A stretch of DNA of 64,000 nt from Phoronis australis (GCA_002633005.1 NMRA01000496.1:1-64000); one strand, 5' to 3'. Shown: positions 3,060-35,879, counted from the stretch's first letter. A program made the numbers and translations. Notes: generated from the sequence alone by a model not told the origin.

Positions 3060-3314
3060 GCTTGTCCACAATCACTTTTAACCTGAATCCTGTAATGCAG
3101 AGCATTTTGTCAGTTTCAAGGCATCTTTTTTTAACTTCTTAGTAATTGCATGCAAACCATGGTTTTGGGGTCAAACTGCTGATTGTGTTCGTATTTTTTC
3201 AAAATAACCAGCTGCACTTCCGGGATTCATAAAGATGGAAAGTATTACATTGGAATCAGTTTCAAGAGCCTTTCTTGAGTGCCACTAAGTGGTGTAATAA
3301 CACACTAATGACCC
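3060..3314 (-). pseudogene. Decayed death-domain exon
   Basis: After a CTGCAG acceptor, fragments SL*IPEVQLVILKKYEHNQQFDPKTMVCMQLLRS* and CSALQDSG*/VIVDK fit the DD pattern LGI....I......D..E...ML..W...L..AL...G...V. Stops and frameshifts present. Confidence 0.5.
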
Positions 3315-3432
3315 CTGCAGATGTGTTATTGCGGCGCAATTCAATGTTAAATCCACCAGTTTACTAAATAATATTTATATCCAAGTGGTTGTTGAGTATT
3401 CACATAAAATTGGTCACCATTGTCTCTCATAC

Positions 3433-3605
3433 CTGGTCCCTTTATTTCACTTGACAGTTTTTCCACCAGTTCTGCAAGTTCCTCCAGATGGAGCTGGTGC
3501 AGCATGTGGGTTAATTCACTGTAATCTCCAATATTAATTATCACTTCCCGCTGAAGCTGTTCAAGAAGTTCCTGAGTGCTTGTTATATTTTGCAGTACTG
3601 CTGGT
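3433..3605 (-). CDS. Exon with the C-terminal half of a death effector domain
   Basis: TTGCTTTTCAG acceptor, CAG|GTATGA donor. PAVLQNITSTQELLEQLQREVIINIGDYSELTHMLHQLHLEELAELVEKL matches the DED pattern LE.I.S..DLF..LE....I...NL..L..LL..I.R.DL...V. Confidence 0.75.
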
Positions 3606-4364
3606 CTGAAAAGCAACAAGACATTCAAAATCACATCCATCTAAAATCACGCCTGCTCACAAAAGCCTGAGCAAAAGTTGTACATGAGAATAAAAAACCT
3701 TCGTGATACAAATCAGGACGATTCCACAGTTCTCAAATAACAACATTGATGAAGATCCTCAATAGTTTTAGCTCATCAGTTTCACCCCCATGATTACCTC
3801 AGTGATGGGACTACTCTAAAAAAGAGTATCACGGGGAGGGTACTCTAAGATTTAACATTACGTATTGATATTCAAATTTCTTGAACCGATGTTAAGCCCC
3901 CGTCACACCAGAGGAGCGGTGCCACCACGGATTTTGGTCAAAACAGTCATTACGTAGTGACACCGTCAGTGGTATTTTCATAGTTTTCCCCTACCCGTCA
4001 CACATGCTTTCTTACGGTGCTACTCAGGTACAGGAGCGGAGCCACGGCGGTGTCAAGGAGGACATGGAGATTCCATGAGGTACCACTGCAGCTTGATGGC
4101 GGTGCTATTGCGATCATTGGTGGCTTGACTGCTAGGCAGCTCTACGGGACCTGTGAGGTGCCATTGTGGGGAAGGCAGTACTACTGAGGCGCTACTGCGT
4201 GGACGCTGCTGCTTCATAACGGCTCTAAGACGTACGCGCAGTGGTTAGTATATGGGAGGTGGTATTTGGTGCAATTCCGTCCCATATTTGCTCCTGCGGA
4301 GGACTTTGCTACAACTGTTATTGTTACTGTTACTGTCACATTCTGAAGCCGCTGAAACTGTCAG

Positions 4365-4635
4365 AGTGAGGAAAGCCAGCAAGAAGCACATGACGAGTCT
4401 TCACAGGATGAGCACGCTGATTGTGCTTCTGGTGCTGAAGATGCTGCAGAGTCTGACCACCAGTCCGTAACTAGCCAACCAAAGAATAAAAAGTCTGCAC
4501 TGATCTTAAAGAAGAGGACGTCATGTCGGACTTGCCATGTGGCCATCCGGAGCTTTATAACAAGAAGCTCAATGCTCATAAAGATAACATGTAGAAGGAC
4601 TCTTCGTGGGCTCAGCAAGCAGCCAGGCTTGATAA
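4365..4635 (+). pseudogene. Harbinger ORF2 (MADF/Myb-like) remnant
   Basis: Acidic stretch followed by HPELYNKKLNAHKDNM*KDSSWAQQAARL, a MADF-type motif. Confidence 0.7.
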
Positions 4636-4662
4636 GCCATTAGCATTCCTGCTGATATGGTA

Positions 4663-5354
4663 TCGCGCATCAGACGTGTATCCATCTCCACCAACATCTG
4701 TCCAGAGGAATTGGTATTCAGCGTCAACAACTCCCATCAACACCATTGAATAGAATCCTTTTTAATTGTGAAAGAAGCTTCCACTGCTGGGAGGTTTGCG
4801 AATTGCGACGTGCTTTCCACCCAGAGCCCCACAGCAAAGGGACGTCCTAGCGCTGCTTGAACTTGTCAGCTACAGCTTTACATTCGTCTTGGGTCGTAGG
4901 GCACTGGATCACCTCGTCTTTAGACGCTTCAGCAATGGCCTGGCAGACTTCCTTGACCAACACAGATACTGTGTTTGCTGGTATCCGGAAATCGAGCTTG
5001 ATTAGAGCCCAAGTGACGAAGAGATGCAGCCACATTCGTCCCTGTGTACAACGCCTTTCTGTACTTACTGTCCTTCTTTGTGATATGTGATCCAACCCTG
5101 ACAAGTAACTCATCAAACATCTCGGACTGAATCTAGGTGAGGGAATTCTGGCACCGGGCTGGACCCTCTCTACTGAACTCGACCATAAGCTGGTTGTAGT
5201 GGCCAAAATGTTCACGTCTCACATCGCCCAGCTGAGGTCTGTCCCAGTGTCTTTTTCGTCTTGGTCGTCTTCTTCTTCGCTCCAGGGCAATCATTGGTTG
5301 CTCATCTTTTGACTGGTATTGCTGCACATGCAGCAACTGCTGTATGACGATCAA
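4663..5354 (-). pseudogene. Harbinger (HARBI1-like) DDE transposase remnant
   Basis: Fragments HFGHYNQLMVE, FDELLVRVGSHITKKDSKYRKAL, FRIPANTVSVLVKEVCQAI and GALGGKHVAIRKPPSSGSFFHN*KGFYSMVLMGVVDAEYQFLWTDVG. The catalytic D of GALDGKH is lost; frameshifts present. Confidence 0.9.
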
Positions 5355-8300
5355 ATTTCTATTGTTATCTGTTATTCCGTTGAGCTTTCAATACTGACTG
5401 TCGATCTCAACTCAAGATTTTTAGAACACTGAAATTTAAGATGAAAAACGAACCTTTTATTCTAAAAATTAGGATTGCCGTAGCACTGCGCAAGCACCTC
5501 GGTGCAATCTCGGTGGAAATGTCATTGCCGCAAAAGCAGCTCAAAAACGCCGCCGTGGGATCGAAGTAGCACCGCAGTAAGATGGCCAAATTCCTCGCTG
5601 ACTCCTCAGTGGTATTCCCTTACCCTCAGTGCTTCTATGGTAGTACTGCAGTAGAACCGTTACGAGATCGCCGTAGTGTCGCCAGTCTACGTTTTAGCTG
5701 ATTGCACGCAGTTGAACTGAGGAAGCACGGCGGTGATGGAGGTGCTTCTGCGGTCCCTGTATGGTGCCACGGCGGTCATGAGAATGTACTGGTGATCCCA
5801 CTGCAGAGCATGTTCAAAGTTTCCGCCGTTCCATGGCGAAGGTCGGCGGTTTTGACAGTTTGCCGTGGTGCTACGGCGACCACTGACGGAACCACTGCGG
5901 TACCAAGAGTGGTATTTGACACAAACTTCAAATCACTTGTACTATATCTCTGGTAGATACATGTACATTGGAATCGTGTCCAATTCCACGATGATCCACG
6001 GGGGAAATAGTATTGAACAGCAAAGTAATAAATATGGCGCTGCAACAGTCTAACCCAGTCTGTAATCGTCGACAGTAGTGCACGTCAAGGTAGAAACACG
6101 TCTGTCAATTTTCATACGTGAATTTTTCTTTACACTGGTTAGTCCAATAGGTAGGAAAATTGCAAAACAGTTTATATGCATTAGGAATGACCAAAAGCTA
6201 ACACACAATATGTTGAATCCATTTAAAACATTGTTATTGTGTGTTGGATAGAATTCATTTACCATGCTTCATGAAGATCCGTGAAGGATTTAAGAAATGT
6301 AAACAACCATTTCAGACAAATTTATTAAAGATCCTGCATGACGTTTAGGACCATATACCACCACAGACGAAAAAACAAACAAACGTCATAAAGAGGTGCC
6401 ACAGCAGTCGAAACTTTCCCAAAGTCAACGTTAGCTGTGGTGTTCTCGGTAGAAATACATATGTCAGTTTTCAAAATGTTAAATATACTAGAGACTTTAC
6501 AGAGAAGTGCGTCAATAAACATTTTATAAATTCAAGAAAAATGGTCACTGGCACTAAATGGCTTAAAATACGTCAATAATATACACAGTCATAGCTATAT
6601 TCGCTTTTACACAAACTACCCTACAGTATATGCCAACTTTTACAACAATCCGTCTAAGCAAGTAATAATTACGGACGTAAAGGAGAAAACAAATAGCCAT
6701 TAGGTGGTGCCACCGTTGTGAAGAGCCATCGAAAAATTATCGTAAGCCGTCTGCGTCCCAGAAGGACCACGTATGTGTTCACAATCGTCCTTAACGTATA
6801 TGAATATGCCAATCTCATGTTAATATGTCAATCCTTAAAATAGCTTGGTATAGAGAAAGCGGACGCCAAAAACACTTAATGACAATTAAAGCGGCAAATC
6901 CGTGTTGGTGGTGCAGAAAACATGCACGTCAATTATCTCCCTGCAGAACGAGAAGACGGTGACGCATTCTTTAAAAATACCTACTTCCCAACTTTTATGA
7001 AAATTCACTCATAATTTGGAGCATACAAGCCGAATCGTAAAAACCTACATCGCAATTAAGCGGCATTCCACCGCGTAATCGGATCCGTCCAAAATTCGGT
7101 CATACCGTACAATCCATGATACGAACATGTCTGCAAAGTTGACAAACATCCATGCAGAGGTTTTGGAAATAAAACAGCGAATGAAGGACAGATGACCACC
7201 GAGCAAACGAACGTGGCACGAAAGGATGCCGGTAGAGGATGACTGTATGACGCATTCGCACATACATTGTACATGAACAGTGTAGGCATATGGGTGCATA
7301 AAACGAGAAAGGATTGAACAACATTGTAAAACAATAAACTGCAGCAAAATTGGAGGTGAAGAGAAAATATTTTTCAAAAAAAGGAATTAAAATGGTAAAT
7401 GTGTTTAATCTACGGTTCAGTTTATGAAAAAACGTATACAGTACATTATACGTGTTACCTATCTTGCACGTTCTGTTTGGAAATAGACATTTAACCCCAA
7501 GTTGTGGCTGGGTAGCAATTGATACAGGTCACTAAACAGAGTGATTATTGATTGATTGTTTCCACGATCTGGCATGGAAGGAAAACTCGACAAACCTGTG
7601 AAGCAGAGTGACTTTTGCAACTAAGAGTGTCGACAATCTATTGAGAATAAGTCACTGTTGTTTCCTCATGAAACTGTATAGCTGGCGAGCTGTTGTGAAC
7701 TGAAGTAATACCAGTTTACACGTTCTACAATTTGAGTGTTAAACCTTCCATAAAAAGTGTTAATTTCATTCACATATAAGTCCACGAGTATTTATTATTC
7801 AAAAATAATGAACTACTTCCAACTATAATGAAATTAAATTTTCATTGACAACAGCGTTTAACTACTAGGCTATCTTTGATGTTCCATCAAGATTATTTAA
7901 AAACAGTTGGAAAGCGTGAAGATAAATGAGATATCTAATAACATGGAACGTACAGGTTGATATATGAGACTCAAGTGTTGAAATTTGGTATAAGGTCACA
8001 AGTCAAACTCTACAGGCTTTGTTGTTTCAAAAAAGATTTACAGTTACTGAGATATAACTACGATTTTGAAGATATTTCGCAGAATACATGATAAGGTTCT
8101 GAAGAATTGAACCCACACAAACCTGGAACACGTTCAACATGAGACGGCGCCAGTGGTGCCATGTACACTTGTTTTTCAGTAACTCATTTCAAGCGAAATC
8201 TCGTAGTTTTGGCCATTAAAAGCTTGTTTTCGAGCAAAGGCGAGTGATTTCGTATGATTCCTCTGACAAAAATGGAGTCGTAATTCATGTTTTTGTGATC

Positions 8301-11300
8301 GATATGGCGCTCTTTGGCTATGCTGACTGAATCAACAGCTTCTTACGCATTTTGTTTCATTTTCAAATTGGCATTTCTTGACCGACCAAAGTGGTGCTGT
8401 AGAAAACTTTATGACGAAGATTGATACACGGGCGATTACTTTCAGTCACTGTGGAGCATATGATTTATTCGTAAACATGTTATGTTGTTTTTCTTACGTA
8501 ATCCAAACTTCACACAACCCCCTTAGACTTTCAAAATCACGACCAATGACACGTTCAGCAACTTCATGTAGCAGCTGTTGATGAAGTTTCCTTGCCACTC
8601 GCCGTTCTCCTGAGAATAAATAGACACATTTCTTAGTTACGTTAACATTACAGATAGCCGTTGTTGCACATGATCTAGCTGTCCTAGACATCGTTCTATT
8701 TAGTACCCCATTGAATTGAGGAGAATCACAGTTGTTGGGAGCTTTCCATCATAAATATTTCTAGTGTGTTTAATTTTGGTCGTTATTTTGGCAAAAACGA
8801 GTGGACCCCGTGATAGTTAAGTCACGAGACATTCTTTCGATGGCAGGCATGAAATATTAAAGTTCTTGAGTTTTAGCAGTACTCTAGAAAAGTGTCCAAA
8901 TTTAGCCAAAATCTTATCTGAAAAATAAACGACCATATTGATACGAAACTTTCAAACACCATGTTTTATCCATCGATTTTTAAAATTTTAGATCAGAATT
9001 TGTTTTTAAAAGTTTGATATTCAGCATGAAGCATTATCAAATATATTATTCAAAAGGTTGTTTGAAATATATTCTAAAAAATCAGTGCAGGCGGTCTGAT
9101 ACACGTTGTACCAGACGTGCGCAGGCCTCACATGTGGGCCCATTGCACTGATCACCTGATTGTTTGAAATGAACAAAGAGAGGAAACTTAGAGAACTGTG
9201 ATATACATGTGGTCTTCATCTTCAACATCTACATTAAACGAAAATTAACCATGCTATTAGAACCTTGCAGTAGTGTTGCAAGGTTACGTTATATAATCAC
9301 GTCTACTTCATACGTATATTGTGTCACTGGAATGCTACCACTACACAATACTTCCAGCACACTGAACTGGGTTCCATGATGGTGAGATTTTTCATGATGC
9401 GGACTAAAAAATGACTATACTTTGTTGTTAGCAGGAAGAACATTTGAAAATACAAAACGTTGACAACCGCTAATGGATATTCCAGCTCTTCAGCAAACTG
9501 TTTACCGTGTTTTACGTAGCCACAATACGATGTGACCATGCCTCAATACTACAGTACATAAGCTGGCAATCCAGACTGTTGGAGAATGTTGTCAAGTCTA
9601 TCAATGCGGTAGGGTGCTTCACATATAATGTACGGTAATATTTTAAGGAATGTTTCGTCATCTTACTATTTGACGTCGTCTTTCTCTGTACACCCTAGGC
9701 AAGCCGACCAGGAGGGCGTACCGACAGTGAGGTAATAAGTGAAACAAGCAAACTATACCAAGATCTTCCGACGTGGAGGGGATTCAACGGTGCAAGTGCA
9801 TGCTTGGGGGATAACTTGCATATCCAGGTAAAACTCCTAAATGCACAATTTGGCAGCGCTACAGAAATGATTGTTGTTTAGGAAACGATACCTCTTTTAA
9901 CAACACAAATGTGAAAGCGTGGGCTTTCAAACATGCCGAACCATTGGTAGTTTTGACACAGCACCTCATTTACAGGCATGTTGGAAATTTCGTGCATGTA
10001 ATGAACAGCTGCAGTCAAAGTGAATGAAAGTTGAGGTCGAAATATTGTATAATGATACTGAATACACTATTTAAATTGGGAGCGCCGATGTTTCGCTTGG
10101 GCCGTGTGGGTAAGATAATAGATTACAGATTTTAGGACGAACACCAGGTTGATTCCGGCAAAAAATCCCAGCTTATTGTACAATCCAATATCACCAACAT
10201 TGTAGTTTGTGCAGCGATCACCATTTTTTCCACTCAAGGTCAGGCTAGTAAGTTCGCTAGCATTCATATAAAACACAAACATTTCACTAAAGTGATTTTG
10301 CGAAGTATTCAGATATCTTGCTTTTTGGTAAAAATAGGGCTACGCAGTGTTTTTCCGTTATACGCCAATATGGTGAGTCAAGTTCACGCTATGGAAACTC
10401 AATTTTTCTTACCCGTTGTAATGGAGGTTAGTAGAATAGCAGATGGCGTTCCGCTTGCCGACTCTTCCTGAAACGAAAATGAAATTCAAAGCACAGAAAA
10501 AGTTAATAGTACAGCAACATACCCTCGAGGTAAATCTGTTAACCTGAAAAACACAAGACCTGGCAAAGATCTCGAAATTACTATGGATGGTTTTATGCTT
10601 TGCCTCTTAATTATTTACTGTATTTACCGGGATAATAAACAACAGGTGGGTCAAAATTGCTTCAAAACTCATTCATTTTAAGTTCATTAAAATAACATGT
10701 TTTAAATTTCGAAGAACTGTACAGAGACATTAAAATTGAAGGCCTCGGTGTTGCAATGCAATATATTTCAATGCTGTCAGATTTTTTAATATGCTGACGG
10801 GAAGTGATCCCTCGGTTGTTATCAGCATAGATAAAACAGTCCATAACAATACCATAAATAATACAAAAAGCAGTAGTTTGATCAATTACATCGGTAATTG
10901 CCACAATTTATTACCACAATACTGTACATGAACATACATATACAGTATGCAGAAGAAATAAAAACTGTTCACATGGTGCGAGTAGAGCGCTCGTAGGAAG
11001 TCCACCCGATACAGGATAAGTGCTGGTGCATCCTGGATAGTTTAATCTTTGAGCAATTTTGATTCGCAAAAAACCTTTATCTTTTGAAAAGCTTGCGAAA
11101 CACAAGGCTAAATGGATCCTAGATTGATCCGTTCTGTAGCATTGTAGAACTTTAAATTCTCTATACGTGGCGGTGATTCTTATAGTAATTGAAAAGTAAT
11201 CATGTCTGGCCACTTTAACTGGGCTTTTTCTCATCCATATATTATTGGGTTGGATTATGTGTTCTGCAAGCATAAACTAAATCATATTATTCCCCATACT

Positions 11301-12006
11301 TTGTACCCTCTTGATATTATCTGTTGTAGACAATCTGCCGCAAAAACCTGGACTAAACTCCACCCCCCCCCCCCAAGCCAAATAGAAAAATCTGAATTTA
11401 ATTCAGCTATAATAGATTTTTAAAATTTTGATAGTGATCTGGGCACGTTTCAAATTCAATCATAACAGCGAAAGGTCTGACGAAGACCCGGTTAAAATCG
11501 ATGCCTAAGCGTCTAGGTGACCTCTGGAGACGAACAGTACTGCTATGTGACGTTATTCCCAATCAGTGGCATGCCTCCTGATGTGCAATGTACTTACTCT
11601 TTTACACAAGTTTCGCACTGTTCCCACACAGTTACCAAAGCATATTCGACAGTATTTTCAATGTTTACAGTCACATGACTTCCTGTTCTGACTGAAGCTT
11701 TTACCTACGCAGTTACGTAACATCACAAAGGGGGTAGTTTGAGGCTGCAAAATACCCGAGGTATTCCCAATGAACTCTAAGACGATGGTGGTCCTATGTA
11801 GGCGTTTGTAAAGACTAAACAATTGTGAACATAGTATGTTACGTCGCTGGCGTCAGAGTTCAGCGAATGTTTCCGGGGCATTTACATGTAAATGAACTGT
11901 TGTGTTGACCGGGTGCATTCAAATGTTCGACCTGGGTGCGGCAGTCGAGTGCCAACAGTAGAACTTTTGCACCGACAGTGAAGGTTGTAACATAAGTTCG
12001 GCGGAC

Positions 12007-12895: not shown

Positions 12896-13323
12896 GGCGG
12901 ACTAACTGGGGACCACGAGATAACGGTGTTCATATCGGATGCTGAAAGGAAGGCACTGACCAAAAATACACGATGTACAAGCTATGTGGAATACTAAGCT
13001 GGGCTCTAACTCGGTAATATTAGTTTGGGTGCCACATGGACATAGTCAACACAGTTAGGATACATATTAGTGTTTGTGTGTAAACGCTTACGGTTGAAGC
13101 TTAGTTAATTATTGTTTATTTAAATGTAACTTTTCTACTGAATTGTCTGATTAAAGTCACGTCGTGACTGCGTTTCCTGGTTTACTTTTATAGAACCAAA
13201 AGTGACTTGGGCAGTTCATTTTGCCATCCCCAATGAAGTGTATGTCATTAAAACTCATTCGCATTTTCCCGTTGCTCCCAAGTTGTTCGATTCTATAGCC
13301 CAACAACATGTTGGGAAGTTTAC

Positions 13324-13676
13324 CCCTGCAGCCAATATCTTACATCACTGATTAACTCCATTCTGGCATTGATGACTGGATGGCCAGCTCTCTTTTGTTC
13401 GATAATTGCTCTAATCTCCAATAAGATCATACCTACCTTGACTGGGCTCTGCTTTAAAAAAGAAAAGTTAAGTAATACCATATCTGAACATAAAGCAATA
13501 GCATTTCTGAAATCTTTCTCAAATGTCAAAAGATGATCATTGTTTAGTTTGTGAATCGCCAAAATCCCACAACTTCAACTGAAGTTACAATAATCTACTC
13601 TTTCTGAACACACCAATTCACTCTGAGTTTCCCAGCGTTCACACGTGGTCTGTACTAGGCCTGGTAAATTATTGGC
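13324..13676 (-). pseudogene. Exon segment with the N-terminal half of a DED (in-frame TGA at 13575-13577)
   Basis: Reads ...VGMILLEIRAIIEQK...MELISDVRYWLQ GG|GTAAAC. The phase-2 donor matches the phase-2 acceptor at 3606. Confidence 0.6.
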
Positions 13677-13806
13677 CTGCTTGTTGTCATAACAGACAAA
13701 AAAGTGTTCTTGGCAGTTAACAAATAAGCTAGATGTTATAACATGCACGTCTGGTTAAGTCACCGAACGGGAAATCACTGTCACGATAGGGTCAAGTTCG
13801 TCTGAA

Positions 13807-14818: not shown

Positions 14819-15712
14819 CTGCAGTCCCACACTCAAAAAAGACAAGAGAAACGAGTAATGTACTTACATGAACCTTCACAGCCCCGTCCATCAGCGTTTC
14901 CTTGTAGATAATTTCCTTCACGCGCAGTCTAACCTTGTCAGCCACAAGTGCACGAACACTAGCTTCAATCATCTCAAAAACTGTACATGCTCTTTCACAA
15001 TGATCCCTTTCAAGTTCAAACCCTTTAGAGGAAATTTGTTTCTTTTTGTCATCCTCAATGCTCCAGCATAAAATTCCAAACAACAACGTGGCGCTATTTA
15101 TCAAACGCATTTTGTAACTTGTACACTCGTGATCAATGTCATCAGTACACTCCACGTCCACGCCATGACAAAATAGTTTAACTATCAACCCTCCATCCTG
15201 TCTTTCTTTTATGTACGGGCATATCCTGCACATGTATGACGCTTCGAGTATATGTTTGATGGTCGTAAACACGCCAGTAGTGATAGGTGATGTGCAATCT
15301 GCCAGCCAAGCAATATTAACCATTGAGCATGTTTTAGAGTAGAAGATTATTTCCTTCCATTGCAGCCTGACATTGCATTCTTCAGTAATGTCCGTCACTT
15401 CACCATCTTTTTCATGCAATATGCGAAAGTCTTCGCTCTTTAGTCGTTGATCATCCACTTTTCCCAACATTGCTGCAACAGTCACTCGCACTTCGACTGG
15501 CTCCGAGAATGTTAGATTTCCATCTGTGCAGGTCACGCATATTCTCTGAGAATAGAGGTTAGCTCTGCCTTGGGTGTCGTAATGCACTGCCCGTGCTAAC
15601 AACAACTGATCTACAAACTCAATTTCTATGTTCCCGGATATTGCATTTGGTGGTACTCTGAGTTGAACCCCTTTGTACCCAAAAACTCCACCGACTGCTC
15701 CATCAATAGTTG
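14814..15712 (-). CDS. ZU5 domain plus UPA-like beta domain exon
   Basis: Extending ORF 14814-15605 to the acceptor CCCTATAG at 15713 gives ATIDGAVGGVFGYKGVQLRVPPNAISGNIEIEF...LYSQRICVTCTDGNLTFSEPVEVRV, the ZU5 signature (GG.L..GV.L.VP.GA ... F..PV.V). A beta-rich segment follows. The frame ends at TGA 14814, or at an alternative donor CAT|GTAAGT at 14867. Confidence 0.8.
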
Positions 15713-15985
15713 CTATAGGGATAGAAATGACATTTATCAGTACTTGGGAAGGATTGCAACGAAAGTCAATTAAGTTCCTCGTTTTCTTAGCAAGTAGCTT
15801 TTATTAGTGATCACTTCAATGTGCAGACTTTGGCACATATTATCTTAGTAATTTTGAATTTCCGTTATCAATTACAATCCGGGAATGAGAAGGTGACGAT
15901 GGCACCCTTTGTCCTTTTTATCGCTATAAATTTGAGAGTAAAAAAGCATGTGTGAGAGTAGCTATTCGGTTAAGCAGAAAAATAC

Positions 15986-16069: not shown

Positions 16070-16247
16070 CTAAAATTGAATTGTTTGTGAGATTTGTTGA
16101 ATGTTGTGCACACTCTATTTTCACGAAAAATCGGGGGCACTTAGACATTCCGGGAGTGACGTCAAACAACCTACATAATTTCTTCTCCCTTCCGTTTGAT
16201 TCAAAGGACCAACTTTAAAATTCCTGAAAAATTACTGAGCGATTAGT

Positions 16248-16618: not shown

Positions 16619-19485
16619 TCACAACAAACCTTTTTACAGCTTTTAAAATTGTTCAGTACATGTACTACATCTCTAATACCAGAGTATTTAACATGACACG
16701 TGTAAGTTAGACAGACACTAAAAATTCTAAATGAAAGTTTATCTACCATTTCTATACTTAGTTTTAATCTGCACAAGTGGACAAAGATAACAACAGTTTA
16801 CAATAAACGCAAACGTATGACAATAAATGCAACAAAAACCTGTTTCGTTATGCACTATCCTTTCTAACAACTATGGCCTTCCCACTGCATTTCAAGGAAT
16901 CAGTTGCTACCTGGGTGTTGGTGAAATTAAGGGCGATTGGGAACGTATAGTGACTTATGGCAATCGGGAGAGGCACTGCAGTTCTACCACGCCTAAATTG
17001 GGACAAAGATTTATAATGTGCAAATGAACACCACGCCTTTTGTTTTTGTACGAAGGTATATTTTGATGCTAAATTACAAGGTAGGAGAGACAACTTCGAA
17101 GACGCTTCCTAATAACAAGAATTGCCTTGACTCTTTGCAAAGACGCAAATTTTAACTAATTTACCCACTCCAGTAATAAATTAAGGGACAAAACCTTTCT
17201 ATATATTAATTGTACTTTTTTCACTGACTTGTGAAACTGTGACCAAAATATGGAGGAAACTGATCGGGAATTTCCTTGGCTACCAACCACCCGCGTTTCA
17301 AGTCTATTAGGCTACAGACAGGAAACTTACACTGGCCCTGTTTTCAGTAAAACATCCACGCACGTTAAGTTCTCAACAAAGAAAATTCCTCATCAACTCA
17401 AAATATTGAGTTCTTCACCTCAATTTCTTAAACGGGCACGCGTGCTTTTTTAGATAGCCCCCCCACCAGAGCACCGGAGTCTCCCAAATTATCCTTAAAT
17501 GTGACGTTCAATCCTTGATATAAACAACACAATGGATATTCCAAGCCTTAGACAGTCTAACTTCTTCAGAGTATGCGATATATCCGCTTGCAATATTCAA
17601 GATGAACAACTCTCACTTAGCATCCCCATGAAGATTTCAGAAGTTTTACAGTGTCATGCCTCTTTAAGGTCCAGCAGTACTCTAGAAAAGTGTCCAACTT
17701 TATCTACCGCCGCATCTCATCTCAAAAATAAATGACCATATCAATACAAAACTTCACACATCATGCTTTGTCCATTGCTCTCACAAATTTGGATTAAGAA
17801 ATGTTTCTAAATGTCAACAGTTTAGTATGAGGGATTAACAAATATACAAGTAGGACTCAAAAGATTGTTTGAAATGAACACGGAAAAGTAACTAAGAGAA
17901 CTTTAAACAGTGTTCATCACATTAGTCAGTGGTGTTGATACGAATGCGTATTTTGCTTCACTGTATTCATAATTGAACATTCCAATTTCACCAAAAAAAA
18001 AATAGTTTGTTCAGTGATGACCACATTTCTACTGTAGGCCAGGCCCGTAAACTGCCGGCTAGACTTCTGAAACACGTTTAATTCAGGAACGTAATTTTGC
18101 GAAGTCTTGAGATAGCTTGACTTTTTCGAGAGAAAATAGGTATACAAAACGCATTCCAAGTAAACGTCACGAAGAGGAGACAGGTTCACGCTATGAAAAC
18201 TCAATCCTTCTTACCAATTGGCGGTGCAGCAGATTCCGCTGTTTCGAACAGCTCTTCCTGAAACGAAACAAAATTCAACGCACAAAAATAGTTAATAGTA
18301 CAGTAGCGTCTCTTCGAAGTAAATCAATTAACCTGAGCAACAAAATACCTAGGGAAGATCTCAAAATTACCATGTATGGATTTATGCTTTGCGACTTCAC
18401 TGACATTTTCCTCGCTGATAAATTATTTTATTCCTTCCAATAACTATTGTATTTGCCGACATAATAAACAATAGGTAGAAGTCCAGACTAGTTTGCATTG
18501 GAATTTATTCCTTTTAAATACATTAAAATAACACTTTTAAATTTCAAATAGCTGAAGAACAGAGGAATTTCCATTTGGAAGCCTCGGTGCTGCAATGCAA
18601 TAGATTTTGGTGATTTGTTTTTTTTATCATGTAAAAATGAATTGATATGTAGGTTGAAATAAGCATTGATTAAACACTATTCTGCCCTCCGCAGAGTAGG
18701 CGTGTCCACCAATTGACTGAAATCAGTTGAAAAGTCTGTTGACCTAATGACTTTGTGGAAGTCAGCGCATACGCAGAGGGAGAATACCTGAGGAGTTACC
18801 AGTATTTTTCAAAATGATTGACATTTTTAAATCAAAACAGCTTACAAAATAAATGAGAAACTACAGTCAAGAAATTAGCAAGAAGGGCAAACACTGGAAA
18901 ACTAAAATTCGAGAACCGGTAGAAATAATGTGGAATATACTAGAGCTCGACTCATTGGTTTACTTGTAAATCTACGCGGTGACCACTGCGTTTCCAAGTG
19001 TATATTTTCACGGTCAAAAGCATTCATTGACAAGACGGAACCACTACAGTGTAGTTTCCACGTCTAGTGGTATTACACAGTACAAACAAATCGTAAAACA
19101 ACAATATGTAATTACAAACAAAAAGGTAGCGTAATGTGTGTGTCTGTTTGTGTGCGTACGTGGGAGTGGGTGTGGGTGTTAGTGTGCATGTTTGTGTTAT
19201 TTCATCTTGAAATTAGAAATGCCATTTTAGAGAAAGTCCCACGGGATTTCCATTTACCTGATAAATCATAAAAACGATGGAAATGCCGACGCACAAATTT
19301 GCACCAACGGCTTCATTTTTGATCTGAAATTCCGCAACTTTGCGTTTATGCGGTATTAGATGCTGTATTCAAAATTGTGAAAATTACATAAAAACGACTC
19401 CATTTATTAAAACCTTAATATTATCACACAAATACTGTCAACAATACTTATACACTAATCACCCGATAATTTCCATGAATGCTAC

Positions 19486-19569
19486 CTTAAGGAATTCCTT
19501 GATGTTTTCTGCAGTTGATTCCTTGATCCTGCGTCCACGTCCACAAACGTCGTAAGCGGTTTCTACAGC
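19486..19569 (-). CDS. C-terminal capping ankyrin-like exon (AVETAYDVCGRGRRIKESTAENIKEFLK)
   Basis: 84 bp, TTTTGTTGCAG acceptor, AAG|GTAGC donor, phase 0-0; the TAYD...I.EFL pattern is typical of a terminal ankyrin repeat. Confidence 0.75.
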
Positions 19570-27074: not shown

Positions 27075-27319
27075 CTATAGCAAGGTTAAATGACATGCTC
27101 ACTATTCAGGTAAAGTTATAGCGAAGTTAGATGACATATTCACTATTCAGGTAAAGTTATAGCAAAGTTAGATGACATGTTCACTATTAAGGTAAAGTTA
27201 TAGCAAAGTTAGATGACCTGTTCACTATTCAGGTAAAGTTATAGCAAAGTTAGATGACATGTTCACTATTCAGGTAAAGTTATAACAAAGTTAGATGACA
27301 TGTTCACTAATCAGGTAAA
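27075..27319. repeat. 41-bp minisatellite
   Basis: About 6 copies of AGTTATAGCAAAGTTAGATGACATGTTCACTATTCAGGTAA, ending ~40 bp from the donor of ankyrin exon 5. Confidence 0.95.
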
Positions 27320-27361
27320 AGTGTGTCTTACCACACAGTTCCATTTACATTCATGTTTTAC

Positions 27362-27460
27362 CTTGTTGACAACTGTGACGTCACCATCCTTTTCCACGAG
27401 GAGTTTCACAACGTCCAGATGGCCGTATTCACAAGCACCGTGCAGCGGTGTGTCGCCATT
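27362..27460 (-). CDS. Ankyrin-repeat exon 5 (NGDTPLHGACEYGHLDVVKLLVEKDGDVTVVNK)
   Basis: 99 bp, TAG acceptor, AAG|GTAAAA donor, phase 0-0, canonical ankyrin consensus. Confidence 0.95.
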
Positions 27461-30400
27461 CTACATCAAATAAAACAGGCTTAAATAAACAAATACGAGT
27501 ACAAAGCGAGATACTTATCTGCATGTATACAATGTAACAGGACATGGTTGGGTAAGTGGCAATGCTTTAGCAGTTTCACGCAAATTGTAAACGAACATTG
27601 ACATGTCTTAAACCGAAATAAAAACGACCTAGTTATAATCCATCACTTCCCACGAACTTATTGAACAAAGCGATTTTCCGCTTGGTCAACAGAGCGACAA
27701 AAACAACACCTTCAGTGAAGATGTGAAAAAATAAACCCACAAGGAAAATCAAACATAACAATACGGTTAATTACCAGGAACCAAAGTGAAACTATTCTCA
27801 TTTATCCTGCTTACATGTTCAGTAATAATTTTCTGATCAACGTGTATTTAATTAGCTGTTGCCACACCAGCATCTTTCTTCTCGGAATATTCCATGTCGC
27901 CGACCACCATTGGACATGCACGACTGAGTACCGGTAGCAATCGGTTAGTCACGTACATGTACAACTCCCGGAAACCAAGCCGAGCGTTTAGTTTCTAATT
28001 AAGGACGTATTCAATACATTAGTTAAAAACTCCATTACTATTTAGCCTATTGGTCCACTTCACAGAGCATGTCTAATGTCTGCAACTCGTACGGATTGTC
28101 AATGTTTCCGTAAACATACATGTACCGTAATCCACGGAATACAAGGCCATGACCTGATGGTACTGTATAGCCGTTTACTGGAACATAAGGCCACAGCTGT
28201 ATAGGATGGGTCATTTCTATTTTAAAGTGCTCTGTAAAAGTTCGTTACTTTGCCTATAATGCCATAACAAACGTAGCACAAAAACGTGTAAAAGAATGCG
28301 CGTGACAATATTATTAATAATGTTAAAATAATGATGATTAAGTTAAGTAAAACAAGATACGTGTGATCACATCGCACAACACCATACAGCACAGCTACTC
28401 CGCACCCAGACAGTGTTCAGTGTTTGCCATTTCGGAATTCGCGGCATAGTTTGCTTGCCATTTTATTGTTCTTTACCATTACATAAAGTTTTTGTCCTGA
28501 TTGGTAAGCCAGAATAACGCCATTGCCTTACATAGTACGGGTCATTTGCATTTTAGTGTTCTAAAATGCATTATACGTTTAGTTCCGCACGGATGTAATG
28601 TACATCGTTTGTTCAAAGAAAAATGCTTAAATATTCCACAAGCACTAGCAATGGATCATCCGCCTTAAATTAAGCGATTTTTTCAGGGTTGGTACATTTT
28701 CAGTACTTTTCATTTAACAAAAAATTGCAAAATTGAATAAACGTCAATGTTTGCCAATTAGTTTTTCAAATTTAACAAAACAAAAAGTAAAGGAGCCATG
28801 TTCCTACAGCTCAACACGGTTGTGGAATTGCGTGACGCAGAAACTTCAAATTGTAAAATTGACAAATAATTAAGCAAAACCAAAACGTTCGAGTTATTAT
28901 TCATTTGAATCAAGTCCCCCGGGATTAGCGGAGAGTTTACTCTAGCCGAACAGAGATAAGAGACACTTTCAGTCAGAACTGAAAAGAAATAGATATCAGA
29001 GAAAAATCAAACACGTTAATCATGTACGTTATCGACACTTTAAAAATTAAACCACTTCCACTGATTTGGATTTTATCGAGCAACAGTTTGACAATTACTT
29101 TGTAATAGCCAAGCTTTTCAACGGCAAGTGCTACACCAGCGTCTTTTTGCGGAATAGTTCGTTTCGCCGACCATCTTCTTTTCACCGATGTGATCTTCCG
29201 CTACTTGAAACCGATATGCGTTTTCAAATTTTATATGATCCAATAATCAAGCCGTGTTTTAATTTTAATTTCAATTGAAGGACTATCCCAATACACAATT
29301 TCAGAACAACATAACTGTACAATATACCTCGATTATCAATTAGCATTCAGTTGGCAATTTATTTTAATTTCACGTCCCAGCTTCTCTTATTCTTTCGTTA
29401 CTTGTTCAGGTCCATGCATATCTTCAGCTGTGCGTTTGTATAAAAAATCGCTCGAACTTCCTACTAGCAATCGACCACCACTCTTAAAACTGAGTGTTCT
29501 AGCATCGTCATTGGTACATCTTCAGAACCTTGCCTTTAAAGCAACATGTCAACGTTTAACAAGTTGTACTTGAAAAGTCCATTTTCACTCACGAAATCTT
29601 TTACTCCTGTTCACGACGGCAGACTCAGTGAAATTGGCAGAGTCTGCAGATTTGAAATTTTTCGCTTTAAAATCAGTATGGACAAGATTGCACGATGTTC
29701 TGCAGCCGTTCTGCGACAGATTCGCGTGCGAACTGAGGGTGTCGGATACCAATCTTTGGAGTTTCTAACCAAATGTATTGTCGAAACATTACGAGTCACA
29801 ATCATTTTGCCAAGGTTCAATTCTATTGGACATACACAATGTGTGGAATCATAGACTATAGTCTATAATCTAGGGTGGAATGCAGTTGCAGACAATTTCG
29901 TGTTTGACTTCATAAAACGTCAATAATGTATGCACAAACCGGAAGCGTTCGGACTTTACGGTGGTGGAGAATAAGGAAGACGTGCAATTTCTTTACCGAG
30001 GGTCAAATTGAGCGGAAACATCATACTTCAGTTTTACTTCAGATTGGTGCAGAATGTGCAACTTGGGAATCCAGAATCTGTGATTTTTTGAAGATTTATG
30101 AAGCTGCTTCATCAAAGGACACCCAGGGTCGGTATTTGGCGCCCGCAGAGAGCGCACCCCTCACGATGTTCTTTTTAGCTTAGTTACTGGAAAATCAGTT
30201 CTTTGATAAAATACATGATTGTTAACTGAACTACAAACTCAAAGACGAGAGTCAGTTACGTCTTTTGTGTAGTCTATACCTGTATGACATCCACACTAAA
30301 TTTACATATTATAATGTTTCAATAATATGACTTTGGACGGGTGAGGAAAGCGAAGACACTGTTGACAACCGTAATCATAAAAATGACCTAACTTCTTAAT

Positions 30401-32929
30401 AAATTATGAAAACAGCCATAATTTGCATTACTGTAAACAAGAGACACTGCCACTTATTTTACGATTGTTATGTTGCTAAAGAGTCTGCACTGTGAAAAAT
30501 AAAAATATAACTTAGTTCCTGACAAATAGTCAATGTTACTTAGATCACTTCCTGTCATAGTTGTCAGTGTTGGAGAAAGAAAAGTGACAACTTGATAGCA
30601 AAAAAATCTGGGTCTGGTAAAAGAACGAGTGAAATGATTGCAGCAACAGAAGAAACTAACCTACAGCGTTTTTGTCGAACGAAGATTACGAGTGTCGCAA
30701 CGCCAAAGCGCAAGAAATTTTTGAATTTAGTCGACTGCAAACTTAAACACGTTGTTTACTCAGTTTATGAATGATAGCTACTGAGTCATAGCTCACGAGT
30801 ATTTGACGACGCACCAAGGTGTGTTCGACACCTAGATTGTACAATGTATTTTTACAAAGCGCACACTACCTGTATGATGGTGACATTTTTCAATCAGATT
30901 TGTCATTTGCATTTTTTACTTAAAGAGTGAGGCAAAATGCTGCTAAGCCCGTCAAGATGCCCAACAACTTCTACACGAATATATCCACCTAGGTCCGAAT
31001 AAAAACACCTTGACCAACTAAATTCAACTGCAACTGAGCAAACGAAATAGTCTGTTAATCCCTTGCGAGTTTGTAAAAACCTGGGAAAGCGAGGATTCCA
31101 CTCCTTGATTTTGTTTCTCGTTTTATTGATCTAAAATTAACAGTTTTTGCTCTACTGAAGTCATGTTTTTGAACTTGGGTAATAAATATAATTTCCATGT
31201 TTACAAGTGAAGTCAACCTCACCGACACATGAACACCATCGAGACTCACATACCGCTATCTTTTGTTTTAACAACAAAAAAGGGCATTAACCTGAACTTT
31301 TGAAACATAAAAAATACCATCTCGGTGATATATTTGTCGATTTCAAGGTTTTTAGTGAAGCAGGCACCCACTCGTAATCAATCTATTTTGATGCAAGATA
31401 TTCCGGCATCAATTTGAATTCTTTCAGCTTGAATTTGGTGAACTTAAATAATTGTATCGATATTATAAGGGCAAAAAACGTGTCACTTATAACAAGCAGT
31501 CGGTATTTATAGTTTTGTTACTGCATGTGGCGATTACGAAGGGATTCTCAATGCAAAATTCCCGACATCACTGGCTTGCGCGAGAGGAACTTAAAAGAAT
31601 ACTACATAGAGCAGAAATAACAGTTTTTATGAAAATGGCGTTCACAAACACATTTCATGGCTTATAAAGAAATAAATGGCGCTTCGATTTAATAATAGAA
31701 ATTAAATATGTACAGAACTGGTTTTAAAGCAAGATGAAGGTCTTTTTGATGGAATAGGTCGTTGGTAAATGAAGAAATCCTCAAACTCAGAGTATCCTGT
31801 GAGCACTACCCACAAAACTGTAAAATCAGTTCCGAACATCAGGTGTATTCATTCTCCAATGTGGTGGACCTCAGATAAGTTCCTACATCATTTTGAAGTT
31901 CCTGTTGTACATTTTAAAAGCAGTAAATGAGATATTTGGACTGGTTAATGTATGTTTGACACATGAAACTTTTGATAACGTGGCCACCAACACAAATCAC
32001 GTCCAGACCTAATCAAGATGTTTCAAAAAGAAATCACGTACGACAACACAAGCCCCACGTTGAAATGATGAAATACATCCTTATAACCTTAAAAGTTTCC
32101 GCAACTAAACAATAAAACTTGCTGACATATCAAGAAGACGAGAGATCAACAAAATAAACACCATACCGTATTTTTGAGACGAGTGAAGCAGACGACAGGT
32201 ATAAAACACGGTACTGTTTCCGACAACAAAATTCATGCAAAAATCGTAAACAAACCAGCTTCAGTGTATACACAATTTAAAGCACCTGCACATGTATACA
32301 CAAACTTTGAATTTACATATTGTATTGTGGACCACAGCTCGTTTACTAGGTTCACAGTGCTCGGCTTGGCACCGTGATAAAAGGACTTGTGCTTTCGACG
32401 GACTACCTGGGACTTTGCCTCAGTCACGCCCTAGATTTCAACTTCATAGAATAGTAAATCCGACCATGGCAGGAACATACACGGTTGTTTGGTGGTTTTG
32501 AAATACATGTACAGTTAAGCCACGGGGTTAAAACACACGGATAAATTGATTGCTAAATAATCGTTATATTGAAACAAGCGAGACTAAAACCTTCAGAAAT
32601 TTTCTAAACGCGCATTTGATTCCTTGCAGTGACTCGAATATAAACCTGCATGTTTTATAAATAATGAAGCGAGAAAATCTGAACCTGTGGCTGTTGTCTA
32701 TTTTTATTTCGTGCCGAATTATCGCGATTAGACAATCTGCTTTGATCCATTGAGTGTTATGGGAAGGTACATGCAGTGAAGAAGTGACTTTTTTGTGTAA
32801 CTCTACGCAGGAGACAGATCATTTTTGACGACATATTTATTACAAGTGAATAGTGTTCGAACTCATAGTACATTTAAAACACATTTATTACAGTCTCAGC
32901 TAAACAAGAGTACAACACTCTTGCAATAC

Positions 32930-33031
32930 CTTGTTGACGGTATTGACGTTGCATCCGCTTTCCCTGCACAGTAGTTTCACTACCTCTGTATGTCCACCTG
33001 CAGATGCCTTGTGCAGCGGTGTGTCACCCCA
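32930..33031 (-). CDS. Ankyrin-repeat exon 4 (WGDTPLHKASAGGHTEVVKLLCRESGCNVNTVNK)
   Basis: 102 bp, TAG acceptor, AAG|GTATTG donor, phase 0-0. Confidence 0.95.
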
Positions 33032-33580
33032 CTACAGTAAGTGAACAAAAATAGATAATGTTGATCAGCATTATACAGTAGTGATGTGAGTGGGTGAACA
33101 GGTCGAGTTTTATACTTTTCCAGTTTAAACTTTAACATCAGTTGCAATACTGATGGAGGGTGTGACTCAACAGGACAGATTAAAACCTGACATTTAAACT
33201 CAGACATAACTTGCGCGGGATTTTTAAAAAGTTCCTCTGACCTGATATAGTCACGTGATTGAAAAGAGTGTTTTAAATATCACAACTTGATCTTATACAT
33301 TACAACAGAGAACATTCATTTAATGAGTGCTGTGGAAATGCAAGTAAAGAACCACATCACTGTGCAAGTCTAGGTGAACTAAAACTGTTTATAATTAGTT
33401 AAAGTCGCGTGCACGTCACGTCACGTGCGGTGGAATGCAACAAAAATGTCAATGTTTAAAATGAAATCATAAATCACGATTAATTAAATCATTGAATGAT
33501 TCAGCCAAGTCACATGTTGTGTGTTCATCACGGTGTGTAAACAACTAGTTCAACTAAACAACCTGTGTGTCATTACTTAC

Positions 33581-33682
33581 CCACTCATCACGTACATCTA
33601 CACTGGCCTTGTTGGCCAACAGCAGCTTCACTGTGTCTGTATGACCACCCTCTGCTGCCTCGTACAGCGGTGTCCGGTCATC
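33581..33682 (-). CDS. Ankyrin-repeat exon 3 (DDRTPLYEAAEGGHTDTVKLLLANKASVDVRDEW)
   Basis: 102 bp, TAG acceptor, GTAAGT donor, phase 0-0; tandem duplicate of exon 34043-34141. Confidence 0.93.
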
Positions 33683-34042
33683 CTATGTAATATATAATGG
33701 AGATGTGGGAATGGACGATCAACGTTTAGAGCTAAGTAACATACACGGGGGAACGTGAACTTGTAAGGTGACATAAATGAAACATTACGGACCCCTCTAA
33801 GACGCTACAATACTTGTAATGAATTCAAGAATCAGGTGTTACAGATTTTAAAACGTTACAGAGCATGTTACAACTCTACGCAGCTTTGGTTCTTCACCAA
33901 GAAAAGCAGACGACATTGAACTTGTCATTGTTTTAGGACAATAAATTGTGAAAAATATCAACAAAACTTGTTCCTAAATAGTTTTAATCATCGTGTTTGT
34001 TAACAACTAGCTCAACTAAACAAACTGTGTGTCATTACTTAC

Positions 34043-34141
34043 ATCATCACGTACATCTACACTGGCCTTGTTGGCCAACATCACCTTCACTATGTCTGTA
34101 TGACCACCCTTTGCTGCCCAGTGCAGCGGTGTCTGGCCATC
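34043..34141 (-). CDS. Ankyrin-repeat exon 2 (DGQTPLHWAAKGGHTDIVKVMLANKASVDVRDD)
   Basis: 99 bp, TAG acceptor, GTAAGT donor, phase 0-0, TPLH motif. Confidence 0.95.
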
Positions 34142-34706
34142 CTATGTAATATATAATGGAGATGTGTGAATGGACGATCAACGTTTAGAGCTAATTAACA
34201 TACACGGGGGAAAGTGAACTTGTAAGGTGACATGAATGAAACATTAGTAACCCCTCTAAGACGCTACAATACTTGTAATGATTTCAAGAACCAAGTGTTG
34301 CAGATTTTAAAACGTTGCTGTAAGAACAGAACATGTTGTAGACGTCCATTGCCAGAAATTACAGAGTTCCTCCATAACTTGACAGCGATCCCGCCATGTT
34401 GTATTTCTTCACCGATTTTCTGGCTTCGCGTTTAATATAAAGTTGTAATGTTGAATGGACGATTGTTATTAAGAATAGAAAAGTATCAACTTTAAGTCGA
34501 CAAATATATTGTTGACACAATTCAAACCTCAATTTTTCTTAAGATGCATGTACACAGTACAGACTGAAAAATATTTGTTGAAATCATGAGATATGAAAAG
34601 TGTATTTACACACAAAATATTTCGTTAAACTTCAGATAGTCTACAGCTTTTGTAACAAAGATAACATTGTCTTAATTCTAATGTCGTCTCAAGTAATTGC
34701 TATTAC

Positions 34707-34802
34707 CCAGTCTAGCACTTCTACATCGGCCCCACCCTGCACCAGCACCCTCACCACCTCCGTCCTGCCCCACACTGCTGCTATGTGAAGTGCTGTCAGG
34801 CC
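34707..34802 (-). CDS. Ankyrin-repeat exon 1 (GLTALHIAAVWGRTEVVRVLVQGGADVEVLDW)
   Basis: 96 bp, TTTCTGCAG acceptor, GTAATA donor, phase 0-0; fits the ankyrin consensus G-TALH-AA--G--EVV--L---GADV. Confidence 0.92.
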
Positions 34803-35867
34803 CTGCAGAAACAATGAACAAGTTATAGCAAACTTCACAATCACTAACTTCACTGTGAATCTTAATTACTTGTCATGCAAAGGTTGAAATATCACAATTG
34901 TACACAGATTCTCTGTTAATTTGATATGAGTAAAAGATTTAATTAAATTTTCCTTTGTTAGCCACCTGAACGGGTATTTTGCTAAAAATAATTCTTAACA
35001 CAAAATACGATATAATAAACAGCAATGTTGAAGCTAATGTGCTCTGTATGAAAGCAGCGATTATAAGGTTAAAACTTACGGGGTCGCCTGATATTCTTAG
35101 TATATCTACCCGAATACCTGATGGGTGCATCAATTGAAAAAGACGTCCAGTTTCACTTCTGCCCGAGGTCCAAAATAGTTTCTAACGAATTTGGGTCATT
35201 AACAAACAGGAACGAAATTATGAAAAAGCATCAATACCTGATTGAAATGATATTGGAATTGGCTATTATTAAAATACAACTGAAGTATGAAGTAGTTTAA
35301 TGAATATTCAATTAGGCAATCTTTGGTAGGCCTATATGGTGTTTTACTGATTAGGAACAAATGCAGAGAGAACACATTCAACTTGTCAATGACTTGGTAA
35401 CTGGTAAAACCTCCTAGAAAAGAATACATGTAAACCCTTCTCTACAAATTAAGCACATGATGAAACACATTTTACCAAAACCATTCTTCTAATAAGACTG
35501 ATGGTCAATCAATCACGTGGTTCACATATTGCCGAAAATACAAACGAATTGTTCTGATGTTCTGAGTCTCCAGACGTCGAGGCAGTGGTTTGGCCAAGCG
35601 AACTGCTGCTTTTAAAAAGAGCGCTTTGCCGGCCAGTTTTCGCGTGTACACGCGATAAAGTGATACATTGGCCTGTTCTTGAATATATATAAAGGGGCAT
35701 TTCCTTATCACAAGGAGCCAATTAAAGAGACTACGACCATGACAAATATCATGAAACGTACTGCATCTTGAGTTTATCGACACGCGTTTGACATTGTAAA
35801 TGCTGTGTTTCGGCATGGACACTATTTTCAAACTTGCTTAAAAAGTTTGACAAGATCAATGACTTAC

Positions 35868-35879
35868 CTTATTCAACAT
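35868..35879 (-). CDS. Putative initiating coding exon (MLNK)
   Basis: Minus strand reads ACAAA-ATG TTG AAT AAG|GTAAGT: good start context, consensus donor, phase 0. It joins the next exon to give MLNK-GLTALHIAA, an ankyrin N-terminus. Confidence 0.45.

Follow-up and report, generated by a model that had tools for sequence, protein, structure and literature searches.

The minus strand of a 64,000-nucleotide (nt) stretch of Phoronis australis DNA (GCA_002633005.1 NMRA01000496.1:1-64000, hereafter the window) carries an exon chain, from 35879 to 3433, that is one real spliced gene. Its product, likely a cytosolic protein, begins with five ankyrin repeats, followed by what are likely a ZU5-UPA module and a death effector domain (DED). 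This is a shuffled ANK(5)-ZU5-(UPA)-DED architecture as predicted from sequence, in which the UPA is assigned from a language-model match. The gene likely encodes an intracellular sensor, or a regulator or adaptor, of cell-death (DED) signaling. An earlier note, made from the sequence alone, had proposed in this region a gene with ankyrin, ZU5, UPA, DED, and death domain (DD) parts; RNA evidence joins its ankyrin, ZU5, and DED exons into one gene, while its exon model needs correction.

Exon structure and reading frame

The window is intron-rich animal DNA with ~38% G+C. When joined, twelve minus-strand exons (E1 to E12) stay open in a single frame over 607 codons, as far as the 3433 donor, and every internal splice site of this model is AG/GT. 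If the donor at 3433 is unused and E12 is left unspliced, the frame continues to a stop at 3347-3349 and comprises 636 codons. Five ankyrin repeats recognized by Pfam come first, together with a likely cap; one linker leads from there to the 845-nt ZU5/UPA-like exon, and another to a likely DED divided over two exons:

35868..35879, minus strand: E1, candidate start exon with ATG and 4 codons, phase 0 (GTAAGT donor and frame fit)
34707..34802, minus strand: E2, ankyrin repeat 1, 96 nt, phase 0-0 (Pfam Ank 36.1 bits; joint to E3)
34043..34141, minus strand: E3, ankyrin repeat 2, 99 nt (Pfam Ank 44.5 bits; joints to E4 and straight to E5)
33581..33682, minus strand: E4, ankyrin repeat 3, 102 nt, recently copied in tandem with E3 (Pfam Ank 35.9 bits)
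32930..33031, minus strand: E5, ankyrin repeat 4, 102 nt (Pfam Ank 39.8 bits; joint to E6)
27362..27460, minus strand: E6, ankyrin repeat 5, 99 nt (Pfam Ank 40.7 bits; canonical joint to E7)
19486..19569, minus strand: E7, likely ankyrin capping exon, 84 nt, phase 0-0 (canonical joint to E8)
18215..18257, minus strand: E8, linker exon, 43 nt, phase 0-1 (joints to E9; paralogous to E10 including flanks)
14868..15712, minus strand: E9, 845 nt, phase 1-0, likely ZU5 followed by likely UPA (Pfam ZU5; ESM Atlas; strand-specific depth)
10413..10467, minus strand: E10, second linker exon, 55 nt, phase 0-1 (canonical joint from E9)
8498..8609, minus strand: E11, likely DED first exon, 112 nt, phase 1-2 (joints from E10 and to E12; frame fit)
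3433..3605, minus strand: E12, likely DED second exon, 173 nt, phase 2-1, GTATGA donor (DED the best Pfam match)

E1 to E7 are the seven phase-0 exons of the earlier note, which were borne out with GT donors throughout and AG acceptors after the first exon. The two linkers (18257-18215 and 10467-10413) and the true first DED exon do not appear in that note. Pfam gave no match for E7, but the query stretch was one base out of register.

RNA joints and depth

The exon chain was compared with four data sets from two studies: contigs that we assume to derive from RNA (X1), and three runs of raw paired RNA reads (X2-X4), of which about 18-19% each was sampled. Reads were placed on positions 500-20499 and 18000-37999 of the window, and the joints considered are the best-supported 15 of 23 and 15 of 88, respectively. 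Joints running from the ankyrin exons to the DED are present in stranded RNA of related individuals in X2 and X3, in smaller number in X4, and in X1 contigs. E2 is joined to E3 by three reads and one contig, E3 to E4 and E4 to E5 by contigs, E5 to E6 by 10+13 reads, E6 to E7 by 8+5+1 reads and one contig with canonical ends, and E7 to E8 by a canonical joint in 17+43 reads and one contig. The E8 to E9 joint occupies four rows of the joint table, and E9 is followed canonically by E10 (14868>10467; 9+9+7 reads), from which reads lead to E11 (at 8609) and then to E12 (8498>3605). The E1 to E2 joint is not among the best 15 of 88, and E1 is placed by its donor and frame. Exon depth reached 30-50x in two of the three raw-read runs and was strand-specific (55 to 1 at 15132, within E9, in X2). 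The overlapping joints from ankyrin through ZU5 to DED therefore indicate a single transcription unit, as pieced together from short reads rather than from one long molecule, and the ankyrin, ZU5, and DED exons do not belong to separate genes.

Read identity to the window is mostly 88-99%, so the reads come from other alleles or close copies (paralogues) rather than from the window copy. In X4, E9 has a depth of 1-2x vs 53x in the bin of E3, and in X1 the ankyrin exons are also far deeper than the ZU5 exon. This excess over the ankyrin exons (32930-34802) suggests a gene family with near-identical ankyrin exons. Read variants of E10 are 21 and 36 nt shorter than that of the window, both multiples of three, so that the DED stays in frame.

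The likely ZU5 and UPA

ZU5 is the sole Pfam match of E9, with E-values of 0.0013-0.007 and 17-19 bits (best 19.4) against a cut-off of 21, and the 3' half of the exon has no Pfam match to UPA. The proposed ZU5/UPA-like exon 15712-14868 has this sub-threshold ZU5 match, and its UPA part is without a profile match. In the ESM Atlas, E9 ranks highest against three ZU5/UPA clusters, with scores of 0.95-0.96 (the 0.96 match has 186 of 256 features in common), and clusters containing UPA matched it at 0.91-0.96. The Atlas recognition value of E9, 2081, falls short of the 2300 mark, which makes this high score weak evidence. The nearest clusters are commonest in echinoderms and sponges, with few records. 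FIIND clusters (0.92) rank below plain ZU5/UPA clusters, and Pfam matched neither FIIND nor CARD. The single-sequence AlphaFold model of E9 had a predicted local distance difference test (pLDDT) value of 33, and a fold search with this low-confidence model gave Z up to 4.0, which is uninformative.

Several ZU5-UPA proteins cleave themselves at the end of the ZU5 domain, and the motif there bears on how the phoronid protein could work. The likely ZU5 end in E9 reads Thr-Cys-Ser near 15330 (positioned by eye), and the E9 translation contains neither His-Phe-Ser nor Ser-Phe-Ser. The motif is given as His-Phe-Ser in PIDD1 and as Ser-Phe-Ser in CARD8 and NLRP1 (PMC3210808, PMC9162469). The buried Phe at -1 is said to set the motif apart and to be required for strain (PMC3210808), and the His at -2 is reported as not required in CARD8 and NLRP1 (PMC3210808, PMC9162469). 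With the Phe replaced by Cys, self-cleavage of E9 appears unlikely, though the Ser is present.

The intron between E9 and E10 contains, at 11995-12907, a near-perfect foldback with 396-nt arms that are 97% complementary and 121 nt apart, covered by reads of both strands.

The likely DED in E11 and E12

When searched alone, E12 has DED (PF01335) as its top Pfam match, with an E-value of 0.0052 and 17.4 bits vs a cut-off of 35.9, over positions 33-81 of the 82-position profile. About 32 positions are thereby left for the 36-codon E11, which would supply helices 1-2. By eye, E11 fits the DED pattern; alone, it had no profile match in Pfam or among PDB sequences. In the ESM Atlas, the best named clusters for E12 are DED clusters (0.85 and 0.82, both under 0.9). 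Pfam covers invertebrate DEDs poorly, as the 17 bits obtained here illustrate. Folded alone, E12 gives a two-helix hairpin with a predicted template modelling score of 0.36.

Co-folding of E11 and E12 as two chains lent weak support to their pairing, with a score of 0.36 vs 0.01 for the best of three controls; the runs shared at least 94% of contacts and the partner pLDDT was at least 73. The mark applied to such scores was reached by 51 of 78 solved microbial pairs vs 2 of 108 mismatched ones, and by 39 of 65 solved eukaryotic pairs vs 2 of 126 unrelated ones; at 0.60 or below, it was reached by only 5 of the 78 solved pairs and by all 4 mismatches that passed. The E11/E12 score may reflect the memory of the model for solved DEDs.

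The intron that divides the DED (8498>3605) is in phase 2 and 4,892 nt long. The earlier note had a DED split by a phase-2 intron, of which the DED-like exon 3605-3433 and the intron phase stand; the intron length of 9.7 kb and the first exon at 13324 do not. The joint 13324>3605 is absent among the best 15 of 23, and the reads instead go from 10467-10413 to 8609-8498 and on to 3605. The proposed exon lies within an intronic feature that does not belong to the gene:

13264..13743, no strand assigned: dispersed repeat in the intron, holding the proposed first DED exon (both-strand reads, loose ends)

This stretch has a depth of 60-80x, with 160 vs 154 reads on the two strands at 13375 in X2, and hundreds of reads have loose ends at 13264 and 13743. 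The even strand split and the loose ends at both borders mark it as a dispersed repeat. As first DED exon, the 13324 exon would keep the frame with five tried acceptors; it was rejected on the read evidence, and its open reading frame (ORF) has no Pfam match.

Compared by eye with the consensus, the hydrophobic Phe-Leu (FL) motif of DEDs appears in this protein as Gly-Leu, with the Phe changed, and RxDL, part of the E/D-RxDL charge triad, appears as Leu-Glu-Glu-Leu, with the Arg changed. The mutational data on such motifs point in both directions. Substitutions of F25 in FADD reduce caspase-8 activation, while caspase-8 F122G/L123G is mostly monomeric and forms no self-filaments yet keeps FADD binding (PMC11074299), and RxDL is needed in some DED proteins and dispensable in others (PMC4558505). 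These data would fit either an activator or a decoy role for the DED.

Two further observations concern this part of the window. Three X2 reads at 3439-3606 connect the E12 end with the E12 start, as would be expected of a circular RNA or of a tandem DED exon in another copy. Within the DED intron, a G+C-rich stretch on the minus strand (~4640-5400) contains broken ORFs, one of which was tested and had no Pfam match. By eye, these ORFs look like the remnant of a Harbinger-type transposase.

The 3' end and the DD-like stretch

The earlier note ended the gene in a FADD-like DED-DD tail. This claim is not supported: the DD-like sequence is interrupted, has no profile or structure match, and attracts hardly any reads:

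3080..3314, minus strand: possible decayed death-domain exon, unconfirmed (CAG acceptor at 3314; death-domain likeness by eye)

The stretch from ~3314 to 3080 resembles a death domain by eye, provided that one tolerates two changes of frame as well as stops at 3247, 3229, and 3133. It had no Pfam match in three frames (with X at stops) and no death-fold match among PDB sequences. A DD-like pattern, written post hoc, matches only there in the window and in none of 30 simulated windows, and the CAG acceptor lies 119 nt past the E12 donor.

Placed wholly on E12, the depth of bin 3168-3834 comes to 43x for X2 and 32x for X3, the level seen on E9 (43-49x and 32-37x). The next bin (2501-3167) has about 1x, and little room is left for reads on the DD-like stretch. 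Most transcripts therefore seem to exit at 3433, and no joint from 3433 is among the best 15 of 23. The exon after 3433 may be situated at positions below 500 or have diverged too far for read placement, and the last exon of the gene may lie outside the window. One ORF (738-1004) was considered as a later DD exon and rejected, with no Pfam match and a depth of at most 0.4x.

Ankyrin exons and the history of the gene

Scanning the six frames for the ankyrin motif gave five candidates, every one of them on the minus strand, and all five exons pass the Pfam Ank (PF00023) cut-off of 21.1 bits with 35.9-44.5 bits. Each repeat is one AG-to-GT exon of 96-102 nt in phase 0. The corresponding pattern, AG-[96/99/102 nt]-GT with the ankyrin motif, has five matches on the minus strand, none on the plus strand, and none in 30 simulated 64-kb strands.

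Duplication and shuffling of exons probably gave rise to the gene. The regions of E3 and E4 are 91% identical over 325 nt and represent a recent tandem copy including flanks. E8 and E10 are older duplicates that also include intron flanks, with 67% identity over 730 nt and 72% over a second stretch of 205 nt. Taken together, E8 and E9 begin and end in phase 0, which would have allowed the ZU5-UPA unit to be inserted as a cassette. The repeat number varies among alleles or copies, with reads joining E3 to E5 (skipping E4; 17+4+11 reads), E5 to E5, and E4 to E4. All 10 bases that differ between E3 and E4 are non-synonymous, though positive selection on these exons is not significant (p 0.07 vs neutrality), and the exons and introns of the pair have diverged alike (10/99 vs 15/223, p 0.37). 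Clustering of the changes on the binding face gave p 0.004 to 0.38 depending on the positions chosen.

Two repeats lie beside these exons: a 41-nt minisatellite (27030-27357) begins just 3' of E6, and the E6-E7 intron holds a high-copy repeat block (~22970-25310) with both-strand reads up to 225x and many loose ends.

Searches for homologues and for the architecture

E9 had no homologue among 3165 longer-protein candidates, 671 near-length candidates, or 393 metagenome contigs, and E12 had none among 117 longer proteins. Against 1.84 billion representatives, phmmer returned two matches to E9, one to a repeat protein of low complexity and one to a bacterial protein with cadherin repeats; each was summed from short matches and rejected. 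One of 592 metagenome contigs (L001) matched E12, over 23 residues inside an unrelated intronless ORF, and was likewise rejected. PDB sequences compared with E9, the ZU5 half, E11, E12, and the DD-like stretch yielded only designed repeats or unrelated proteins. A homologue by which conservation could be gauged was thus found in none of the protein, representative, and metagenome searches.

No description of an ANK-ZU5-UPA-DED protein was found in the full-text literature searched, a coverage that excludes most subscription papers. None is among 72 of the 96 ZU5 places in file 4 and 30 of the 66 in file 6 of the PMC8195603 supplements, and the available parts of PMC12909245, PMC9573974, and PMC10855541 contain nothing closer.

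Proposed mechanism and alternatives

We tentatively favor, with somewhat less than even confidence, a non-cleaving, UNC5-style switch that couples binding on the ankyrin face to DED signaling. In such a protein, the 845-nt exon E9 would fold as ZU5-UPA, and at rest the UPA and the death fold would pack back on ZU5, as reported for UNC5 and ankyrin-B (PMC9162469). A partner or a pathogen protein bound to the ankyrin repeats would open the ZU5-UPA module, and the freed UPA would cluster the DEDs, much as UPA clusters the CARDs of CARD8 and NLRP1 (PMC11874512); the clustered DEDs could then engage a FADD- or caspase-8/10-type DED protein. A number of the results above weigh against this switch: the Pfam matches of E9 and E12 are below cut-off, that of UPA is missing, the Atlas recognition value of E9 and the Atlas scores of E12 are low, the Phe and Arg of the DED motifs appear changed and F25 substitutions impair FADD, the reads derive from other copies, selection on the ankyrin exons is not significant and the clustering of their changes varies with the positions chosen, and the searches found no homologue to gauge conservation.

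The apparently changed motifs would also suit a decoy or brake, in which a degenerate DED binds FADD- or caspase-type DEDs on one face and halts the chain in a cFLIP-like manner, with the ankyrin repeats setting place or timing. We consider this unlikely, albeit worth taking seriously. It would draw on Gly-Leu for Phe-Leu and Leu-Glu-Glu-Leu for RxDL and on the frame into the DED being maintained across the E10 length variants, while the motif alignment was made by eye and Pfam is thin on invertebrate DEDs. Caspase-8 F122G/L123G, which loses self-filaments but binds FADD (PMC11074299), is what such a decoy might resemble; the dispensability of RxDL in some DED proteins (PMC4558505) argues the other way. 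A nearly comparable, low probability is given to a recently shuffled, lineage-restricted scaffold or drifting gene, whose ZU5-UPA and DED are mere spacers or decaying and have no sensor role. The distance of both signaling domains from their profiles, the two repeat artefacts as the only matches among 1.84 billion representatives, the broken DD-like stretch after the DED, and the recent internal duplications are consistent with such drift, whereas the 845-nt exon and the eleven others are open and in phase, the E10 variants preserve the frame, and exon reads reach 30-50x in two of the three raw-read runs.

A further alternative is a CARD8/NLRP1-like tripwire, which would cut itself before the Ser of Thr-Cys-Ser and in which damage to the ankyrin half would free UPA-DED to form a DED filament. 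CARD8 has the same layout of one ZU5, UPA, and death fold (PMC7483925), the Ser is at the likely nucleophile position, and the His at -2 is unneeded in CARD8 and NLRP1 (PMC3210808, PMC9162469). Yet position -1 has a Cys instead of the buried Phe and position -2 lacks a His, the site was placed by eye, and FIIND clusters rank below plain ZU5/UPA in the Atlas, so we regard a tripwire as quite improbable. Somewhat less improbable, though still doubtful, is a PIDD/FADD hybrid in one chain with DED-DD at its end, where other alleles would have kept the DD intact or a DD exon outside the window would supply it; as it concerns the tail only, it can be combined with the other readings. The DD-like trace with its CAG acceptor, the post hoc pattern unique to that site, and the depth arithmetic, by which most transcripts seem to splice from the E12 donor to a further exon, speak for it. 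Its three stops, two frame changes, lack of a Pfam or PDB death-fold match, ~1x depth in 2501-3167, and lack of a 3433 joint among the best 15 of 23 speak against it. The PIDD-like reading of the earlier note, with recruitment of caspase-8-type proteases, is weakened by the unlikely self-cleavage and the apparently degenerate DED motifs; one ZU5 is present instead of two, and Thr-Cys-Ser occupies (by eye) the site of the PIDD His-Phe-Ser.

More speculatively, the switch might represent a one-chain invertebrate receptor family in which a variable, exon-per-repeat ankyrin surface leads through ZU5-UPA to a DED that starts caspase-8-type filaments without a death receptor or FADD, an extension that we hold to be unlikely. 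If true, such a family would be for DEDs what CARD8 and PIDD1 are for their own death folds, put together by shuffling of exons. With a DED at its end, the ZU5-UPA switch would be extended to a third death fold and would give an invertebrate a direct cytosolic route to, or a brake on, caspase-8-type signaling. The gene also illustrates how such a protein could originate, with one repeat per phase-0 exon, a varying repeat number, and a duplicated linker on each side of the ZU5-UPA exon. Its significance is tempered by the sub-threshold matches, the degenerate motifs, and the many similar shuffled architectures of marine invertebrates.

Other features of the window

Upstream of the gene, a fragmented and decayed element resembling a long interspersed element is found on the minus strand at 38472-41730 (RVT_1 Pfam match, E 1.4e-11). 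An inverted copy pair (35610-35739 and 38040-38174, ~87% identical) flanks E1 and the upstream region. A short abundant repeat with hundreds of loose-ended reads lies at 9076-9158, and further minisatellites are at 16199-16669 (27 nt), 19887-20234 (50 nt), and 58746-59936 (28 nt).

Comparison with known systems

Among the known ZU5-UPA proteins, the terminal death fold is a DD in UNC5, ankyrins, and PIDD1 and a CARD in CARD8 and NLRP1. The design of repeats followed by ZU5-UPA and a death fold is already established in PIDD1, ankyrins, UNC5, CARD8, and NLRP1 (PMC9162469, PMC5135030, PMC7483925, PMC11874512), and the new element in the phoronid gene would be its DED tail.

UNC5 (UNC5B, PDB 3g5b, and UNC5CL) has the single ZU5, the UPA, and the death fold that are predicted for the phoronid protein, and both are likely non-cleaving; the UNC5 module is reported to keep the death fold shut (PMC9162469). 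Unlike UNC5, the phoronid gene model has no visible ectodomain or membrane helix, and it has ankyrins in front, a one-exon ZU5-UPA, and a likely DED instead of a DD. PIDD1 (LRR-ZU5-ZU5-UPA-DD) is a single cytosolic chain in which, as predicted here, a repeat array precedes ZU5/UPA and a death fold, whereas here the repeats are ankyrin rather than LRR, one ZU5 match is found in a 281-codon exon without His-Phe-Ser, and the likely tail is a DED rather than a DD. The FIIND-CARD sensors CARD8 and NLRP1 have the predicted order of ZU5, UPA, and death fold, and UPA could cluster the death fold. The phoronid protein differs from them in having no FIIND profile match, Thr-Cys-Ser instead of Ser-Phe-Ser, and a likely DED instead of a CARD; one dog FIIND sequence is labelled 'ded' in an alignment (PMC3210808).

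Canonical ankyrins (ANK1-3), which consist of 24 ANK-ZU5-ZU5-UPA-DD (PMC5135030), have ankyrin repeats ahead of ZU5/UPA and a death fold, as predicted here. With five repeats, one ZU5, a likely DED tail, and no similarity found at the sequence level, the phoronid gene is, by its predicted architecture, not an ankyrin orthologue. FADD (DED-DD) resembles it in its single likely DED, while no intact DD was found here within the window and the DED signature residues appear changed. Marine invertebrates have widely shuffled ZU5-UPA, ankyrin, and death folds in a lineage-specific manner, with TRADDN-ZU5-ZU5-UPA-Death in corals and Death-Death-TRADDN-ZU5-UPA in sea urchin as examples (PMC8195603), and the phoronid gene, with its likely DED, would add one more arrangement of these parts.

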